64,000 nucleotides of DNA from Giardia intestinalis (lineage: Eukaryota). Location: assembly GCA_000002435.2 (NCBI GenBank), contig CM018792.1, one strand, 5' to 3'. Shown piece after piece: positions 28,354 to 54,511 of the stretch (position 1 is the stretch's first letter; the number at the start of each line of letters is the position of its first letter). The translations under genes were made by a program, and so were the position numbers. The notes beneath the pieces were generated by a model. The model made no database searches and was not told the origin of the DNA. It worked only from the letters and a program-made list of their open reading frames with translations.

Positions 28354-30396
28354 ATGTTCCAACTGATACCCCTGTTCGTGGCGAGCGCGCTCATGGCGGC
28401 CTGCCAGCCAGACGGGAACCATACAGCGACCTGCGCACAGAATAAGTGCGAGACGGTCGGGTCAGCCGAGATCTGCACCGAGTGCAGGGCCGGGGGCGTC
28501 CCGGTCGACGGCTTCTGCCGGCCCCCCGGCTCCCCCCAGGCCGCGGCGGCCGGGTGCACCCAAGCAGACGGGACTGCCCTCGACAAGACGGCAACCACCT
28601 GCGAGAAGTGCGGCGACGGGTACTTCCTCTTCATGGGCGGGTGCTACAAGACAACCGACGGGCCCGGCAGCGAGATATGCACAGCAGCCAGTAATGGAGT
28701 ATGCACTACTTGTAAGGCAGATAACGGCCTGTTCAAGAACCCTGCTACAGCACCAGAGAAAGGAAGGGAGTGCATACTCTGTCATGATGCCACGGGAGCA
28801 GATGGATATATGGGAGTCGAGGGCTGCGCTACATGTACAGCACCAACTAATAATAAGGGGGCAGCCACGTGCACAGAGTGTCAAGATGGGTACTACAACG
28901 ATGGTGGCGCATGTAAGAAGTGCGTTGATGGATGCATAGACTGCACCGGTGCAAATCAATGCACAACATGTGAGGACGGGAAATACCTGAAGAATAATCA
29001 ATGTGTAGATGCTGGTCAATGTGATCAAGGCACCTATGCAGACCCGACAACAGGCCAATGCAAGCCATGTGGAATAACTGACTGTGCCACCTGTGAGTAC
29101 AATGCAACTATTAGTCAACCACAGTGTAAGACCTGCAGTACTAGTAGTAACAAGATGGTGAAGACAGCGGCAGACGGGACGACCACTTGTGTCGATGATG
29201 GTGGATGTACAAATGGCAATACGCACTTTGTTGAAGGTACTAACCAAAAGCTTTGTGTCCCATGTGGTGATACTACAAATGGTGGGGTTCTAGGTTGTAG
29301 TACTTGCTCCTCTAAAACTACATGTACAAAGTGCCTCGACGGATATTACGATAATGATGATAGTCAAGATACAGCTACGTGTGTCGCTTGTGGTGGACAA
29401 AATTGTGAGACATGTGCTAAGGCTACGAGTGATAAATGCACGACCTGTAAGCCTGGATTCTTCTTGAAGGATAGCTCCTCTGGTGAGTGCATCTCATGTA
29501 GTGACACAGCAAATGGTGGTCGCGAAGGCTGCAGTGTCTGCTCGAATGATAGTGGATTCAAGTGCACTGACTGTAAGCCTAACTATAAGAAGCAGCTTAA
29601 TGGAGGAGCAGATGATGACTATACATGTGTGAAGACCTGTGAGGATGACACTGCTTGTGGTGGTACCTCTGGTGCTTGCGATGCCATAGTGATCAATGAG
29701 AATGGAAAGGAGCTTCACTACTGTTCATACTGTGGGGATAACAGTAAGTATCCTATAGATGGAAAATGTACAAATGTCAATGCTGGAAATACAGGATGCA
29801 CCAATAATGTCTGCAAGTCTTGTACTGCAGGGTACTTCCTCTATATGGGAGGGTGTTATAAGATTGGTGCAGAACCAGGCAACCTCATGTGCAAGACCGC
29901 TGAAGGTGGTAAGTGCACTGCTGTTAATGCCAATAATAGGTACTTCGTAGTCCCAGAGGCACAGGCTACTGATCAGTCTGTGTTGGCATGTGGCAACCCC
30001 CTTGGCACACTAGTAGGCACTGATAGTACCTCTAAGGCATATGTGGGGGTAGATGGCTGCTCCCAGTGTACAGCCCCAGTAGCTCTGACTGAGGCTGGTA
30101 TGGCTGCCGCTACATGCACCTCCTGTGACAGTGATAAGGTGCCCAACAAGGATGGCACCGGGTGTGTGCTGTGCTCTGTGGGTGATTGCAAGCACTGTGT
30201 GGTGGATGATGTGTGTGGGGAGTGCAGTGATGGATACAGTCTAGACAGCAGTGGGGCCTCCTGTGTGTCTTCTAGCAGTAATAGGAGCGGGCTCTCCACG
30301 GGGGCCATAGCTGGCATCTCCGTCGCTGTCATCGCTGTCGTGGGGGGCCTCGTGGGCTTCCTCTGCTGGTGGTTCCTGTGCAGGGGGAAGGCGTGA
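28354..30396 (+). CDS. variant-specific surface protein (VSP), full length with N-terminal signal peptide (array unit 1)
   Basis: ATG at 28354 gives MFQLIPLFVASALMAACQ (signal peptide). The body has many CXXC and GGCY motifs. It ends ...[38 protein letters not shown], stop TGA at 30394-30396, with AGTGAAT poly(A) signal 9 nt later. The ORF-track start at 28165 is an upstream extension through stop-poor GC-rich sequence. Confidence 0.85.
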   Translation: MFQLIPLFVASALMAACQPDGNHTATCAQNKCETVGSAEICTECRAGGVPVDGFCRPPGSPQAAAAGCTQADGTALDKTATTCEKCGDGYFLFMGGCYKTTDGPGSEICTAASNGVCTTCKADNGLFKNPATAPEKGRECILCHDATGADGYMGVEGCATCTAPTNNKGAATCTECQDGYYNDGGACKKCVDGCIDCTGANQCTTCEDGKYLKNNQCVDAGQCDQGTYADPTTGQCKPCGITDCATCEYNATISQPQCKTCSTSSNKMVKTAADGTTTCVDDGGCTNGNTHFVEGTNQKLCVPCGDTTNGGVLGCSTCSSKTTCTKCLDGYYDNDDSQDTATCVACGGQNCETCAKATSDKCTTCKPGFFLKDSSSGECISCSDTANGGREGCSVCSNDSGFKCTDCKPNYKKQLNGGADDDYTCVKTCEDDTACGGTSGACDAIVINENGKELHYCSYCGDNSKYPIDGKCTNVNAGNTGCTNNVCKSCTAGYFLYMGGCYKIGAEPGNLMCKTAEGGKCTAVNANNRYFVVPEAQATDQSVLACGNPLGTLVGTDSTSKAYVGVDGCSQCTAPVALTEAGMAAATCTSCDSDKVPNKDGTGCVLCSVGDCKHCVVDDVCGECSDGYSLDSSGASCVSSSSNRSGLSTGAIAGISVAVIAVVGGLVGFLCWWFLCRGKA

Positions 30397-30404
30397 CTTA
30401 GGTA

Positions 30405-30411
30405 GTGAATG
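30405..30411 (+). terminator. Giardia-type poly(A) signal AGTGAAT (AGTRAAY); recurs 9-12 nt after the stop of all 13 VSP units
   Basis: TGA-CTTAGGT-AGTGAAT-GC is conserved after every CRGKA stop. At 54524 it reads AGTGAAC. The ATG of the next unit (30409) lies inside this signal. Confidence 0.6.
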
Positions 30412-52510: not shown

Positions 52511-52522
52511 CTTAGGTAGTGA

Positions 52523-54511
52523 ATGCTGTACAGTGATAGTGATAGTGCTATGTGGTGTGGGGGTGATAGTGGTGGTGTGGGACTTCTCTTCATGGGCGGG
52601 TGCTACAAGACAGAGAGTCAGCCCGGCAGTGAGATATGCACAGCAGCCAAGGATGGACTGTGCACTACTTGTAATACAGCTAACGGCCTGTTTAAGAACC
52701 CGGCTACAGCACCGAAGTCTGGTAGTGAGTGCATCCTCTGCTGGGACACGGTGGGAGATGGCGCGACGAAGGGAGTCGAGGGCTGTGCCACATGTACAGC
52801 ACCAGCTAATAATAAGGGGGCTGCCACGTGTACTAAGTGCCAAGATGGATACTATAAGAACGCTCAGACATGTGTCAAATGTAATGAAGCTTGTCTGACC
52901 TGCGATGGAAGTGGCCAGAATGCGTGCACATCGTGCCCAGAGGGGAAGTATTTGAAGACTGATAGTAAGACTTGTGTAGAGGCGTCTGCCTGTGCAAAGG
53001 GCACCTATGCCGACGAAGCAACCAGAAAGTGCGAATCCTGTACCGCAGGCTCAGGTGCCGGCGGTACGGCAGGAGTGCAAGAATGCGCTGCGTGTGCATA
53101 TAATAAGGCCAGCGGAAAACTGGAATGCTCTGAATGTACCGGCGGAGCCAAGATCCCCAGGGTGTCTTTGGATGGTACCTCGACCTGCGTGGCGAAGGAC
53201 TACGCCGGGTGTGCCGGACAAGACAACGCTTTGTTTATAGTAGAGGACAAGTCCAAATGCCTTTTGTGCGACGACGTTGAAACGGGGACAGATCCGAAGG
53301 ATCAGGGCGTCGCCGGCTGTAAGGCTTGCACGAAGACCTCGAGTGCAAAGCCCACTTGCACAGAATGCTTGGAGGGATACAAAAGTACCGGAGTTGGTTC
53401 AGTAACATGCACCCCCTGTCACGCCAACTGTGCCACATGCTCAGCTGAAACTGCTGAGGATAAGTGCCTGACCTGCAAAGCAGGGTTCTTTCTAGTTGAT
53501 GTTACGGGTGGGAAGAAGTGTGTCCCATGTGATAGCAAAACCGATAATGGCATCGATGGGTGTGCCGAGTGTGATAACAGTACTGGATCCCTCAAGTGTA
53601 CAAAGTGCAAGGTGAACTACAAGCAGAGCGGTACCGGTCCTGTTACATGTACCAAGACTTGTGAAGATGAGACTGCATGCGGGGGTACCTCTGGCGCCTG
53701 TGATGCCATCGTAATAGATGATAAGGGCAACACAAAGCACTACTGTTCATACTGTGGGGATGACAGTAAGGTACCGATTGATGGGAAGTGTGTTGATAGT
53801 GGTAGTATAAATGGTAATACTTGTGCTAAAGGTGTATGTACACAGTGTGCTCAAGGATACTTCTTATACATGGGAGGCTGTTATAAGGTAGCAAGTCCAC
53901 CTGGTAACCTCATGTGCACTGAAGCAACAACAGCTGGTGTCTGCACAGAGGCGGCCAACAATAAGTACTTCGTAGTACCAGGAGCATCCAATCAGAATCA
54001 GTCTGTATTGGCATGTGGTAACCCATTAGGCACACTAGTAGGCACTCAAGGTACTGCTAAGGCATACGTGGGGGTACTCAACTGTTCACAGTGCACAGCC
54101 CCAGCAGCTCTGTCTGATGGTGGTATGGCTGCTGCTATATGTACCTCCTGTGACAGTGATAGGAAGCCCAACAGGGATGGCAGTGGGTGCTTCGCATGTG
54201 CCGTTAGTGGATGCTCGCACTGCAACAGGGATGACATGTGCGAGGCATGTAATGATGGTAAGAAGGTGAGCCCTGGGAGGAAGTCATGCGTGGATAAGTG
54301 TCCCAGCAACTCCACTGACACCGACTCTGTCTGTGTGTGCGACGATGGATATAGCCCTGACAGCAGTGGGACCTCCTGTGTGTCTATGAGCACCAACAGG
54401 AGCGGGCTCTCCACGGGGGCCATCGCGGGCATCTCCGTCGCTGTCATCGCTGTCGTGGGGGGTCTCATAGGGTTCCTCTGCTGGTGGTTCCTGTGTAGAG
54501 GGAAGGCGTGA
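52523..54511 (+). CDS. VSP unit 13, 5'-truncated at LLFMGGCYK breakpoint, ATG in poly(A) signal of unit 12; intact paralogue of unit 3
   Basis: MLYSDSDSAMWCGGDSGGVGLLFMGGCYKTESQ... 662 codons ending [27 protein letters not shown] signal follows at 54524. This is the last unit of the array. Confidence 0.7.
   Translation: MLYSDSDSAMWCGGDSGGVGLLFMGGCYKTESQPGSEICTAAKDGLCTTCNTANGLFKNPATAPKSGSECILCWDTVGDGATKGVEGCATCTAPANNKGAATCTKCQDGYYKNAQTCVKCNEACLTCDGSGQNACTSCPEGKYLKTDSKTCVEASACAKGTYADEATRKCESCTAGSGAGGTAGVQECAACAYNKASGKLECSECTGGAKIPRVSLDGTSTCVAKDYAGCAGQDNALFIVEDKSKCLLCDDVETGTDPKDQGVAGCKACTKTSSAKPTCTECLEGYKSTGVGSVTCTPCHANCATCSAETAEDKCLTCKAGFFLVDVTGGKKCVPCDSKTDNGIDGCAECDNSTGSLKCTKCKVNYKQSGTGPVTCTKTCEDETACGGTSGACDAIVIDDKGNTKHYCSYCGDDSKVPIDGKCVDSGSINGNTCAKGVCTQCAQGYFLYMGGCYKVASPPGNLMCTEATTAGVCTEAANNKYFVVPGASNQNQSVLACGNPLGTLVGTQGTAKAYVGVLNCSQCTAPAALSDGGMAAAICTSCDSDRKPNRDGSGCFACAVSGCSHCNRDDMCEACNDGKKVSPGRKSCVDKCPSNSTDTDSVCVCDDGYSPDSSGTSCVSMSTNRSGLSTGAIAGISVAVIAVVGGLIGFLCWWFLCRGKA

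Follow-up and report, generated by a model that had tools for sequence, protein, structure and literature searches.

A chromosome 4 array of one complete and 12 5'-truncated VSP units in Giardia intestinalis WB-C6, read as a possible silent archive

Results and discussion

Within the window (the whole 64-kb stretch of DNA analysed), 13 VSP units lie head-to-tail on the + strand over ~26 kb, one complete gene being followed by 12 units without a front end. These 12 downstream units have neither a promoter or initiator nor the signal-peptide region, and most of them are without a start codon; their interiors are mosaic and have been reshuffled, and they are old and constrained rather than decaying. 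The window is from the 2.76-Mb chromosome (chromosome 4 by size) of Giardia intestinalis WB-C6, and WB-C6 genes on the 2,761,001-bp chromosome in the protein collection are exact protein matches to ORFs of the array. Probably the locus is the longest of the 'vsp linear arrays' reported by Adam et al. (2010), and for this strain both the arrangement and the 'silent cassette bank' idea are already in the literature (2010 and 2020). The explanation we consider probable is that the array combines an initiator-bearing VSP with 12 ψVSP units that act as a silent archive, exchanging segments and diversifying the repertoire.

Layout of the array and its head gene

Thirteen CRGKA-stop tails were located on the + strand (stops at 30396, 32364, 34364, 36277, 38177, 40102, 43207, 45235, 47071, 48870, 50708, 52510 and 54511) and none on the - strand. 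AGTGAAT or AGTGAAC follows each TM-CRGKA stop within ~8-11 nt, bearing out the claim of a preliminary description that all 13 + strand units end in this tail plus an AGTRAAY signal (AGTGAAY in every case), and Pfam VSP was assigned to all units. The array is chromosome-internal, with HSP70-family and LSM genes on one side and flavoprotein and katanin genes on the other; unit 13, the final unit, is followed by unique sequence and then by the flavoprotein gene (KAE8304146; 55137-56381, - strand). The current reference annotates zero proteins between this gene and the head VSP (KAE8304145), while units 2, 7, 8 and 13 were called VSPs in the 2007 Sanger annotation.

Unit 1 (28354..30396, + strand) is a complete VSP head of 680 aa and an exact protein match to KAE8304145.1/XP_001705626.1. 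It carries the Pfam VSP domain (PF03302, E = 1e-44), 28 CXXC motifs, the TM-CRGKA tail and a signal-peptide-like leader, MFQLIPLFVASALMAAC, that is identical in other complete WB VSPs. As had been proposed, this N-terminal region occurs in the array in unit 1 only. A VSP initiator, TAATGTT, lies across the head start codon (28352..28358, + strand), and from 26 to 56 kb the + strand has no other PyAATGTT; about one per 30 kb is expected by chance, and the one observed sits exactly at the ATG at 28354. Immediately 5' of the head is a GC-rich non-coding block (26492..28351, + strand) common to other VSP heads, sharing 92% identity over 1.85 kb with the region 5' of an unlinked VSP of isolate DH (L006 8331-10172). 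Adam et al. (2010) noted an 'extended noncoding region upstream' of the members that open an array, and this block is consistent with it.

Unit boundaries, spacers and start signals

The truncated units begin at one of two fixed points, with class membership exactly as previously claimed: type A units (2, 3, 8 and 13) start at L(L)FMGGCY and type B units (4, 5, 6, 7, 9, 10, 11 and 12) at (E/D/V)ICT(A/K/Q)AS. Numbered from the ATG at 28354, these points correspond to head codons ~91/92 and 107, only 15-16 codons apart, which corrects the earlier figures of codon ~150 and a distance of ~20 codons; the missing front of the units is therefore ~90-106 codons. The 12 spacers, measured from a stop up to the codon at which VSP homology resumes, span 57-129 nt, within the ~50-140 nt first estimated, and consist of a poly(A) signal and a 10-bp GGGTGATAGA repeat present 2-6 times (TRF period 10). 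Of the 30 GGTGATAR motifs in the 64-kb window, 27 are inside the 12 spacers.

All of the following features are on the + strand, and from unit 3 onwards the coordinates include the preceding spacer. Spacer 1 (30397..30468; 72 nt), composed of an extended poly(A) signal and GTGATAG repeats, forms a type A junction with unit 2 (30469..32364), which starts LLFMGGCY, equals the old XP_001705627.1 and is open for 651 codons counted from an ATG within the poly(A) signal. Unit 3 (type A, 32365..34364; spacer 72 nt) is a 99.7% copy of unit 13. Next come three type B units, namely unit 4 (34365..36277; spacer 59 nt, EICTAAS at 34424, 619 codons open, Pfam VSP), unit 5 (36278..38177; spacer 82 nt with 5-6 copies of the 10-bp repeat, DICTAAS at 36360, 607 codons open) and unit 6 (38178..40102; spacer 59 nt, start 38237, 623 codons open). 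Unit 7 (type B, 40103..43207; spacer 57 nt, VICTKAS at 40160), the ATG-ORF of which is XP_001707661.1, is open for 1017 codons and has an additional ~1.1-kb Cys-rich ectodomain segment 5' of the TM region. Unit 8 (type A, 43208..45235; spacer 129 nt with four perfect GGGTGATAGA copies, start 43337, 654 codons open) equals XP_001707663.1, and its ATG-ORF begins with hydrophobic MIVLCGVLCSVG. The remaining type B units are unit 9 (45236..47071; spacer 90 nt, DICTQAS at 45326, 583 codons open), near-identical to unit 12 over the 3' 1.4 kb, unit 10 (47072..48870; spacer 59 nt, start 47131, 581 codons open, Pfam VSP), unit 11 (48871..50708; spacer 69 nt, VICTAAS at 48940, one frame break) and unit 12 (50709..52510; spacer 59 nt, start 50768, 582 codons open). 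Type A unit 13 (52511..54511; spacer 72 nt, start 52583, 662 codons open) equals XP_001707667.1.

In units 2, 3 and 13 the poly(A) signal (AGTGAATG) itself contains an in-frame ATG, in unit 8 one is found 75 nt 3' of the preceding stop, and the eight type B units have no ATG at the 5' end, in agreement with the original count of four and eight. Some units, especially those of type A, might nevertheless give rise to proteins that get to the surface despite having no classical signal peptide, as their intact ORFs, the hydrophobic start of unit 8 and the VSP calls of 2007 could suggest; in ectopic VSPs, the N-terminal domain was reported to be dispensable for membrane localisation (Li et al. 2013, PMC3656445). 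We regard such cryptic expression as very unlikely, given the eight absent start codons and the finding that upstream of any truncated unit there is neither a VSP initiator nor an A/T run of six or more. A cryptic upstream exon was also considered, but no splice motifs able to join a head 5' exon to a unit were found. The SignalP 5 screen of Xu et al. (2020, Sci Data) likewise argues against cryptic expression, with no protein annotated from the head VSP to the flavoprotein (PMC7000408), and the conclusion of Li et al. is disputed (Rodriguez-Walker 2022; bioRxiv 10.1101/2022.03.07.483299, in its Discussion).

With 13 co-oriented units only 57-129 nt apart, read-through from the head would be physically easy, and the array could in principle be an RNA source, read-through or antisense transcripts yielding double-stranded or small RNAs for RNAi/miRNA silencing of VSPs. 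Strand-specific RNA-seq has shown more antisense than sense reads for most VSP genes (bioRxiv 10.1101/2022.03.07.483299), and VSP coding sequences are targeted by Argonaute-bound small RNAs (PMC3937270). However, the intact extended poly(A) signal of every unit should end read-through, the ψVSP arrays of G. muris are essentially non-transcribed (PMC7641422), and this explanation, which we judge quite unlikely, leaves the open frames and the low dN/dS described below unaccounted for.

Open frames, divergence and exchange of tracts

Ten of the 12 truncated units are fully open over 581-1017 codons, amounting to ~7,000 codons without a stop codon. The other two each carry a single 1-nt homopolymer deletion relative to an identical sister tract, in unit 3 at ~34311 before the TM region (G5 versus G6 in unit 13) and in unit 11 at ~50319 (C4 versus C5 in an otherwise identical unit 7 tract). 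Between units, pairwise dN/dS is 0.26-0.45 (~0.3) at a dS of 0.7-1.5, a signature of purifying selection, and protein identity is 56-70%. Mean pairwise identity along the units falls from ~0.82 in the 5' block to 0.48-0.6 in the core and rises to 0.90 at the 3' end. These open frames and dN/dS values fall short of proving selection on the array, because passive overwriting by conversion from functional genes would give the same signature.

Exact tracts of 150-1876 nt are shared between non-adjacent units with changing partners, and 16 pairs of downstream units share exact tracts of 100-1876 nt. Moreover, blocks of 90-100% amino acid identity on a background of 40-55% link the units to complete VSPs of three other chromosomes (4.02, 1.97 and 1.49 Mb; P0007, P0008 and P0006). 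Between the head and its own units, no exact tract longer than 65 nt was found when all downstream units were compared; without recent exchange of this kind, any donor role would be in trans, or rare. The head-plus-silent-bank picture first put forward thus holds in its anatomy, one complete gene with a 5'-truncated bank, but a vls- or VSG-like feeding of the head in cis gains zero support.

The absence of recent exchange with the adjacent head also suits a different reading, that the units are a non-functional by-product, debris of repeated unequal crossing-over whose frames are kept by functional VSP genes overwriting a passive recipient that confers no benefit. Adam et al. (2010; PMC2996952) themselves explicitly raised the possibility of 'remains of discarded vsp genes', the missing initiator, signal-peptide region and (mostly) start codon are in keeping with it, and the two frameshifts indicate that lesions do occur. 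Nevertheless, maintaining ~7,000 stop-free codons in ten units and a dN/dS of ~0.3 at a dS of ~1 would require very frequent overwriting, and exchange is commonest among the ψVSP units, which alone would spread lesions rather than purge them. A by-product is therefore possible but on the whole somewhat unlikely.

The junction at other loci and in other isolates

The unit junction recurs outside the array. A spacer-encoded leader, MLYSDSDS...L(L/F)FMGGCY, is also present in two unlinked WB ORFs (P0017 and P0031) that are 63-67% identical to anything in the window, and isolate DH carries the same DNA junction 3' of a VSP (L001), so the unit boundary is old and family-wide. At the syntenic site of assemblage E (P15), by contrast, a VSP head is followed by 336 nt of non-VSP sequence up to the contig end, so great age of the array at this locus is not demonstrable; that the array is not directly behind the P15 head also accords with a by-product. 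The internal tandem amplification proposed initially is only partly borne out: it implies a local and fairly recent event, which does not match the 56-70% identity, the dS values or the junction at unlinked loci.

An assembly artefact, with 5' parts lost or units collapsed or mis-joined in repeats, is close to excluded. In its favour are the highly repetitive nature of the region, a break in short-read assemblies ~670 bp short of the katanin gene, and the position of both frameshifts in homopolymers, as is typical of PacBio consensus errors. Yet the Sanger (2007) and PacBio (2020) assemblies, made independently, agree on the unit 7 ORF and on the ORFs that start in the spacers of units 2, 8 and 13, DH carries the same junction, and one consistent architecture extends across twelve junctions. 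An artefact was rejected on the 100% identity of the ORFs of units 2, 7, 8 and 13 to XP_001705627, XP_001707661, XP_001707663 and XP_001707667 in the independent 2007 annotation.

A proposed history of the silent archive

In its anatomy each unit is a cassette in which a variable ectodomain core is held between two conserved homology blocks, GGCY/EICTAAS on the 5' side (head codons ~91-125) and TM-CRGKA with the extended poly(A) signal on the 3' side, and the poly(A) signal and slippage-prone 10-bp (GGGTGATAGA)n form the spacer joining units. The founder truncated unit may have arisen by one illegitimate join of a VSP 3' UTR to an internal point near the GGCY motif, and type B resembles a form of type A that has lost ~60 nt by deletion across the AGTGA(G/T)ATA microhomology. 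Unequal crossing-over would then have multiplied the unit at the array and at other loci. Under the archive explanation, the units themselves would be unexpressed, silence being assumed from their missing signals and the G. muris precedent, and would persist as an archive, with gene conversion trading segments among units and also, in trans, between units and the complete VSPs of other chromosomes. The direction and rate of this conversion and any selective benefit are inferred, not observed. The VSP repertoire would be diversified over evolutionary time, and clonal switching would still be epigenetic or post-transcriptional.

Comparison with known systems

The vlsE locus of Borrelia burgdorferi resembles the array in having one expressed gene beside contiguous incomplete cassettes in open frame. 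However, vls cassettes are both 5'- and 3'-incomplete and convert segmentally into the adjacent vlsE, whereas in Giardia a 3' end, a stop codon and a poly(A) signal are retained by every unit, and no recent tract links the head to the units beside it. The silent VSG arrays of Trypanosoma brucei are likewise large collections of antigen genes that lack promoters, are often incomplete and become mosaic by segmental conversion, and VSG cassettes have a short repeat upstream (the 70-bp repeats) and a conserved 3' end downstream. The 10-bp spacer repeat is comparable to the 70-bp repeats in position. Switching in T. brucei is by recombination into a telomeric expression site, while in Giardia it is taken to be epigenetic or post-transcriptional, with no expression site defined.

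Closer still are the ψVSP arrays of G. muris, which are non-transcribed and recombining (Xu et al. 2020, Microb Genom 6:mgen000402; PMC7641422). These comprise 5-23 co-oriented VSP copies without signal peptides, are silent and read as a reservoir, and phylogenetic evidence points to recombination or gene conversion between them and intact VSPs. They differ in being almost all adjacent to telomeres, whereas the WB array is chromosome-internal, and in a GCRGK rather than CRGKA tail.

The cassette-reservoir hypothesis favoured here is not new but that of Adam et al. (2010) and Xu et al. (2020) (PMC2996952, PMC7000408, PMC7641422). Adam et al. (BMC Genomics 11:424, PMC2996952) described vsp arrays with an Inr-bearing first member and unexpressed downstream members and advanced the cassette hypothesis, and WB array members were later annotated as ψVSPs (Xu et al. 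2020, Sci Data 7:38, PMC7000408). The fixed type A and B start points, the 10-bp spacer repeat, the ORF integrity and the dN/dS values are details added here, not stated in the sections of the published array text examined. In those sections, the WB linear arrays are of the same strain and match the window in their head-to-tail units, ~60-bp intergenic regions, a first member that carries an Inr and is preceded by a long non-coding region, and further members without an Inr or start codon. The longest array (PMC2996952) has 10 + 2 genes on adjacent chromosome-4 contigs, a single odd-clade member, which fits unit 7, and a pair 94% identical with long 100% stretches, three positions apart, which fits units 9 and 12; as far as that text extends, the published array and the one in the window do not differ in any essential respect.

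Architecture and genomic position of the array

Thirteen VSP units lie head-to-tail on the + strand between 28354 and 54511, a complete head gene (unit 1) being followed by twelve 5'-truncated copies (units 2-13). CRGKA-stop tails occur 13 times on the + strand (30396-54511), with the extended poly(A) signal CTTAGGTAGTGAAY after every one of them, and not once on the - strand, and the full ending of TM helix, CRGKA, stop and extended poly(A) signal ACTTAGRTAGTRAAY is present in 13/13 units, with that of unit 3 out of frame through a 1-nt deletion. CXXC motifs number 19-44 per unit, and the units compared with the Pfam VSP domain (PF03302) all matched it, with E-values of 1e-38 to 1e-77 for units 1, 4, 7, 8 and 10. 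As the preliminary description had it, the N-terminal region is confined to the head, where TAATGTT stands at 28352 and the leader reads MFQLIPLFVASALMAAC; both are missing from units 2-13. This leader is identical to those of other complete WB VSPs, and the sole + strand PyAATGTT initiator (Inr) in the region from 26 to 56 kb spans the head ATG at 28354. Because units 2-13 have neither signal peptide nor initiator, the criteria of Xu 2020 and Rodriguez-Walker 2022 class them as ψVSPs.

Translation of the 240 nt past each stop reproduced exactly the two start classes reported earlier. Units 2, 3, 8 and 13 start at L(L)FMGGCY (type A), and units 4-7 and 9-12 regain VSP homology at (E/D/V)ICT(A/K/Q)AS (type B). 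The truncation had been placed at about codon 150, with start points about 20 codons apart; counted from the ATG at 28354, however, FLFMGGCY occupies head codons 91-98 and EICTAAS codons 107-113, so the units are missing about 90-106 codons, not about 150, and the start points are 15-16 codons apart. Apart from this codon number the feature is real and was correctly described, including its short spacers, which measure 57-129 nt. A vsp linear array is defined by at least two to three adjacent co-oriented units with intergenic distances averaging about 60 bp and reaching 241 bp (Adam 2010; Xu 2020). The 13 co-oriented units, their short spacers, the restriction of the Inr and upstream non-coding region to the head and the want of a proper start codon and signal peptide in the downstream members thus identify a vsp linear array, or ψVSP array.

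In the 2020 long-read assembly of Giardia intestinalis WB clone C6, a 2,761,001-bp chromosome encodes proteins identical to those of the housekeeping ORFs in the window, among them a putative heat-shock protein (KAE8304143), a methyltransferase, a NEK kinase and p60 katanin (KAE8304147). The head (ATG at 28354, + strand) is KAE8304145.1, equal to XP_001705626.1, and the protein annotation resumes with the A-type flavoprotein KAE8304146.1 (55137-56381, - strand). Since these two entries flank the array, the current reference has no protein or CDS for units 2-13. An assembly artefact was rejected as the source of the truncated units: the 2007 Sanger annotation, made independently, gives identical versions of the unit 7 ORF and of the ORFs that begin in the spacers of units 2, 8 and 13.

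By its size, the chromosome is chromosome 4, which measured 2.79 Mb by optical mapping and has the highest vsp density of all chromosomes according to Adam 2010 (PMC2996952). The same text places more than half of WB vsp genes in "linear arrays" with intergenic distances of about 60 bp. There the first member typically has an Inr and a long non-coding upstream region, and downstream members have no Inr, sometimes no start codon, and are probably unexpressed. The longest array in that account comprised ten genes ending contig 12 and adjoining two on contig 32 of chromosome 4, with one member of another clade and a pair, vsp61/64, that is 94% identical with long 100% stretches. For the window array, the head and unit 2 are on one old contig and units 7-13 on the katanin contig, the odd-clade member fits unit 7, and the 94% pair fits units 9 and 12. 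These correspondences make it very probably the published longest WB array. VSP copies without a 5' portion in arrays (pVSPs) and a VSP-specific extended poly(A) signal also feature in Rodriguez-Walker 2022 (bioRxiv 10.1101/2022.03.07.483299), and G. muris ψVSP arrays have been described as silent and recombining and likened to trypanosomes and Pneumocystis (Xu 2020, PMC7641422). The feature class, the earlier observation and its main interpretation are all, then, already in the literature.

Spacers, junctions and leaders

After the poly(A) signal, each spacer contains 2-6 copies of a 10-bp repeat with the consensus GGGTGATAGA (TRF period 10). Of the 30 occurrences of GGTGATAR in the 64-kb window, all of them on the + strand, 27 fall within the 12 spacers. 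Type A spacers read ...GTGCTATGTGGTGTG...GGTGATAGTGATAGT and run into CTCCTCTTCATGGGC, with the coding sequence about 50 nt downstream reading GGCAGTGAGATATGCAC. Type B spacers end in ...GATAGTGGAGT joined directly to GAGATATGCAC. Set against the type A coding sequence, this junction makes type B look like a deletion derivative of type A that has apparently lost about 60 nt across the microhomology AGTGA(G/T)ATA.

The truncated units are probably silent, with the G. muris arrays as a precedent (PMC7641422). The alternative of cryptic expression bears above all on the few units with spacer-encoded leaders. In units 2, 3 and 13 translation from the ATG of the poly(A) signal (AGTGAATG) would continue in the VSP frame and give the leader MLYSDSDSAMWCGG..., which is not signal-peptide-like. 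In unit 8 an ATG lies 75 nt past the preceding stop and opens the hydrophobic leader MIVLCGVLCSVG, which is ambiguous as a signal peptide and did not pass as one in the reference annotation. Cryptic splicing of the head 5' part onto the units was also considered and rejected, as the head contains no GTATGT and no unit start has a CTRAC...AG acceptor. A further alternative casts the units as an RNA source for silencing.

The overlap of AGTGAAT with the ATG of units 2, 3 and 13 is found at 30404-30411, 32372-32379 and 52518-52525. From there the frame passes through GTGATA hexamer repeats (SDSDS) directly into the VSP unit, whereas in spacers of the 10-bp repeat the motif TGATAG shuts all three frames. 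The ATG-initiated ORF of unit 8 (43283-43320), which is not a protein in the reference annotation, opens with the hydrophobic, spacer-encoded stretch MIVLCGVLCSVGDSDS, and this could be a marginal signal peptide.

Open reading frames and constraint

In ten of the 12 truncated units the frame runs without interruption from the last stop in the spacer as far as CRGKA, a length of 581-1017 codons. The frame breaks in the other two are 1-nt homopolymer deletions, at about 34311 in unit 3 (G5 versus G6 in the otherwise identical unit 13 tract) and at about 50319 in unit 11 (C4 versus C5 in the otherwise identical unit 7 tract); both may be real slippage mutations or long-read consensus errors. Protein identity between unit pairs is 56-70%, except for 3/13 (99.7% at the DNA level) and 9/12 (92%). 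Nei-Gojobori dS values are 0.7-1.5 and dN/dS 0.26-0.45, and head-unit pairs are the same as unit-unit pairs in this respect. At the DNA level, mean pairwise identity is about 0.82 across the first ~120 nt, falls to 0.48-0.6 in the variable core, recovers in conserved blocks within the C-terminal half, and reaches 0.90 in the last ~110 nt.

The preliminary description pictured an internal tandem amplification. Had this been recent and local, with neutral decay thereafter, the constraint, the dS of 0.7-1.5 and the conservation profile would look different. An alternative view takes the array as a passive by-product. The open frames and dN/dS of about 0.3 reflect either selection for donors or continual refreshing by functional genes.

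Unit 7 has a particular structure. Before its TM region it has about 1.1 kb of additional Cys-rich ectodomain of another VSP type (41700-43050), an insertion that makes it a chimeric open frame of 1017 codons. XP_001705785, an entry of the old annotation, clusters with unit 7 at 90% identity or more, which suggests a second copy elsewhere or an allelic variant.

Mosaicism and sequence exchange

Non-adjacent units are joined by exact tracts of 150-1876 nt, and the partners switch along each unit. For example, units 3 and 13 share 1876 nt, units 9 and 12 blocks of 548 and 482 nt, units 2 and 8 368 nt, units 7 and 11 360 nt, and units 6 and 10 338 nt. Similarly, unit 5 shares 327 nt with units 3/13, and units 4, 10 and 12 do not differ over their first ~350 nt. 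Outside the conserved ends, exact tracts of at least 100 nt connect 16 of the 78 unit pairs, none of which includes the head. In addition, protein-level comparison of the units with WB VSPs that are complete, have a signal peptide and lie on other chromosomes revealed blocks of 60-200 aa with 90-100% identity in backgrounds of 40-55%. Such blocks link unit 5 with P0007 (4.02-Mb chromosome), unit 10 with P0006 (1.49-Mb chromosome) and units 2 and 13 with P0008 (1.97-Mb chromosome), all three handles denoting database proteins. On the evidence of the mosaic tracts and the protein identity blocks, segmental exchange appears evident both between downstream units and between these units and VSPs of other chromosomes, whichever its direction.

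The earlier comparison with an expressed head gene plus a silent bank, as in vls or VSG systems, holds as far as the bank of promoter-less partial copies is concerned. Conversion into the adjacent head, a further mark of such systems, gains no support: among exact matches in all head-unit pairs, no exchange between the array and its own head was detectable, the longest match being 65 nt and lying inside the conserved 5' block.

The array flank and related loci

The GC-rich region at 20-28 kb was considered as rDNA or subtelomere context and rejected as such, since Rfam gave one tRNA only and the region consists of an 84-bp satellite and a VSP-upstream block. The satellite (21226-25389, also 20995-21188) comprises about 49 tandem copies at 99-100% identity with a GC content of about 70%, and a 14-bp repeat of 13.6 copies lies immediately upstream of it. 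Each 84-bp copy holds 58 nt from the 3' part of the tRNA gene at 21204-21276 (- strand); the syntenic locus (L008) of the assemblage E isolate P15 has just about three tRNA-fragment copies versus about 49 in WB, and the satellite forms most of the extra ~7 kb that separates the HSP70-family gene from the VSP head in WB relative to P15. Further downstream, 25570-26498 has 73-78% similarity to a P15 gene (L002 919-2287; 422 aa, with a weak zf-C2H2_16 match) and is an apparent gene relic in the gene-poor region upstream of the array. The 1.85 kb directly 5' of the head (26492-28333) is 92% identical to sequence upstream of an unlinked DH VSP (L006 8331-10172). Several entries (P0001, P0112) contain this GC-rich "VSP upstream block" in translated form, where it lengthens the ORF spuriously (VSRLGTETGCA...).

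The array junction also occurs elsewhere. Two WB ORFs of the old annotation, P0017 and P0031, have an array-type spacer-encoded leader followed by L(L/F)FMGGCY and are just 63-67% identical to the closest window sequence. The DH isolate (assemblage AII) has, at a different locus (L001), a VSP after which come the poly(A) signal, GGGTGATAG repeats and CTTCTCTTCATGGGCGGG. The presence of the junction at unlinked WB and DH loci indicates that the unit boundary is older than the present composition of the array and has spread from locus to locus. In P15, the syntenic site has a VSP head after HSP70-LSM-tRNA relics and then non-VSP GC-rich sequence up to the end of the contig 336 nt later, so that no great age of the array at this position is supported. 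One other-isolate locus was reached via the flanking katanin gene, and its short-read contig stops about 670 bp upstream of katanin. The solitary VSP loci L005 and L006 had no arrays, and loci L003 and L004 no informative junctions.

P15 ORFs starting at MGGCY were rejected as evidence for a shared truncation point, as P0051 (L002 9720-10000) is full-length with one in-frame stop at about codon 42. Its annotated ORF begins at the next Met, so database VSPs with a GGCY-Met start are not necessarily array units. Many assemblage-B (GS) "partial VSP" entries (among P0038-P0120) share one recurrent internal start, VNDPAGVSIDSLCRPSSSPQ... (VNDPAGVSIDSLCRP...), which corresponds to about codon 47 in a complete VSP. 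In the one locus inspected closely, L003, this start follows GC-rich non-coding DNA with AGTGAAC and is not inside an array. The assemblage-B start point may be a different, lineage-specific truncation boundary.

Proposed origin, significance and comparison with known systems

The observed anatomy, constraint and mosaicism of the array fit the following course, the most likely one. A founder 5'-truncated unit would have arisen from an illegitimate join between a VSP 3' UTR and an internal point at the GGCY block and would have been copied up by unequal crossing-over, with slippage changing the copy number of the 10-bp spacer repeat. The conserved 5' and 3' blocks would then guide frequent segmental gene conversion, which would reshuffle the variable cores between units of the array and, in trans, with complete VSP genes. 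As to transfer direction and benefit, we infer that the array would feed repertoire evolution rather than clonal switching, and Giardia switching is regarded as epigenetic or post-transcriptional in the literature (PMC2996952; bioRxiv 10.1101/2022.03.07.483299).

The window offers no new kind of element but a clean, fully assembled example. In the accessible text of the published array descriptions we found neither the two fixed 5' boundaries and the spacer-specific 10-bp repeat nor the near-complete ORF integrity with a dN/dS of about 0.3 and the exchange that bypasses the adjacent head. These features sharpen the published reservoir hypothesis and leave the overall picture unchanged. VSP arrays form a large part of the Giardia surface-antigen pool (208 ψVSPs versus 133 VSPs in WB), and the question of junk versus working archive is relevant to renewal of the antigen repertoire and to VSP-based vaccine design.

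A bolder and rather doubtful possibility is that ψVSPs are purpose-bounded donor cassettes, in which the variable ectodomain would be enclosed between GGCY/EICTAAS and TM-CRGKA-poly(A) handles, (GGGTGATAGA)n would act as a break- or pairing-prone 5' boundary, and the ORFs would be selected via regular copying in trans into expressible VSPs. If true, a recombinational layer of antigen diversification would lie beneath the epigenetic switching of Giardia. Cassette systems of the vls, VSG and MSG type convert segments into a dedicated expression site, whereas the adjacent Giardia head bears no sign of this. What the window shares with them is a bank of promoter-less, probably silent partial antigen copies and, should the donor-cassette reading hold, the 10-bp spacer repeat would be the proposed counterpart of the trypanosome 70-bp repeat.
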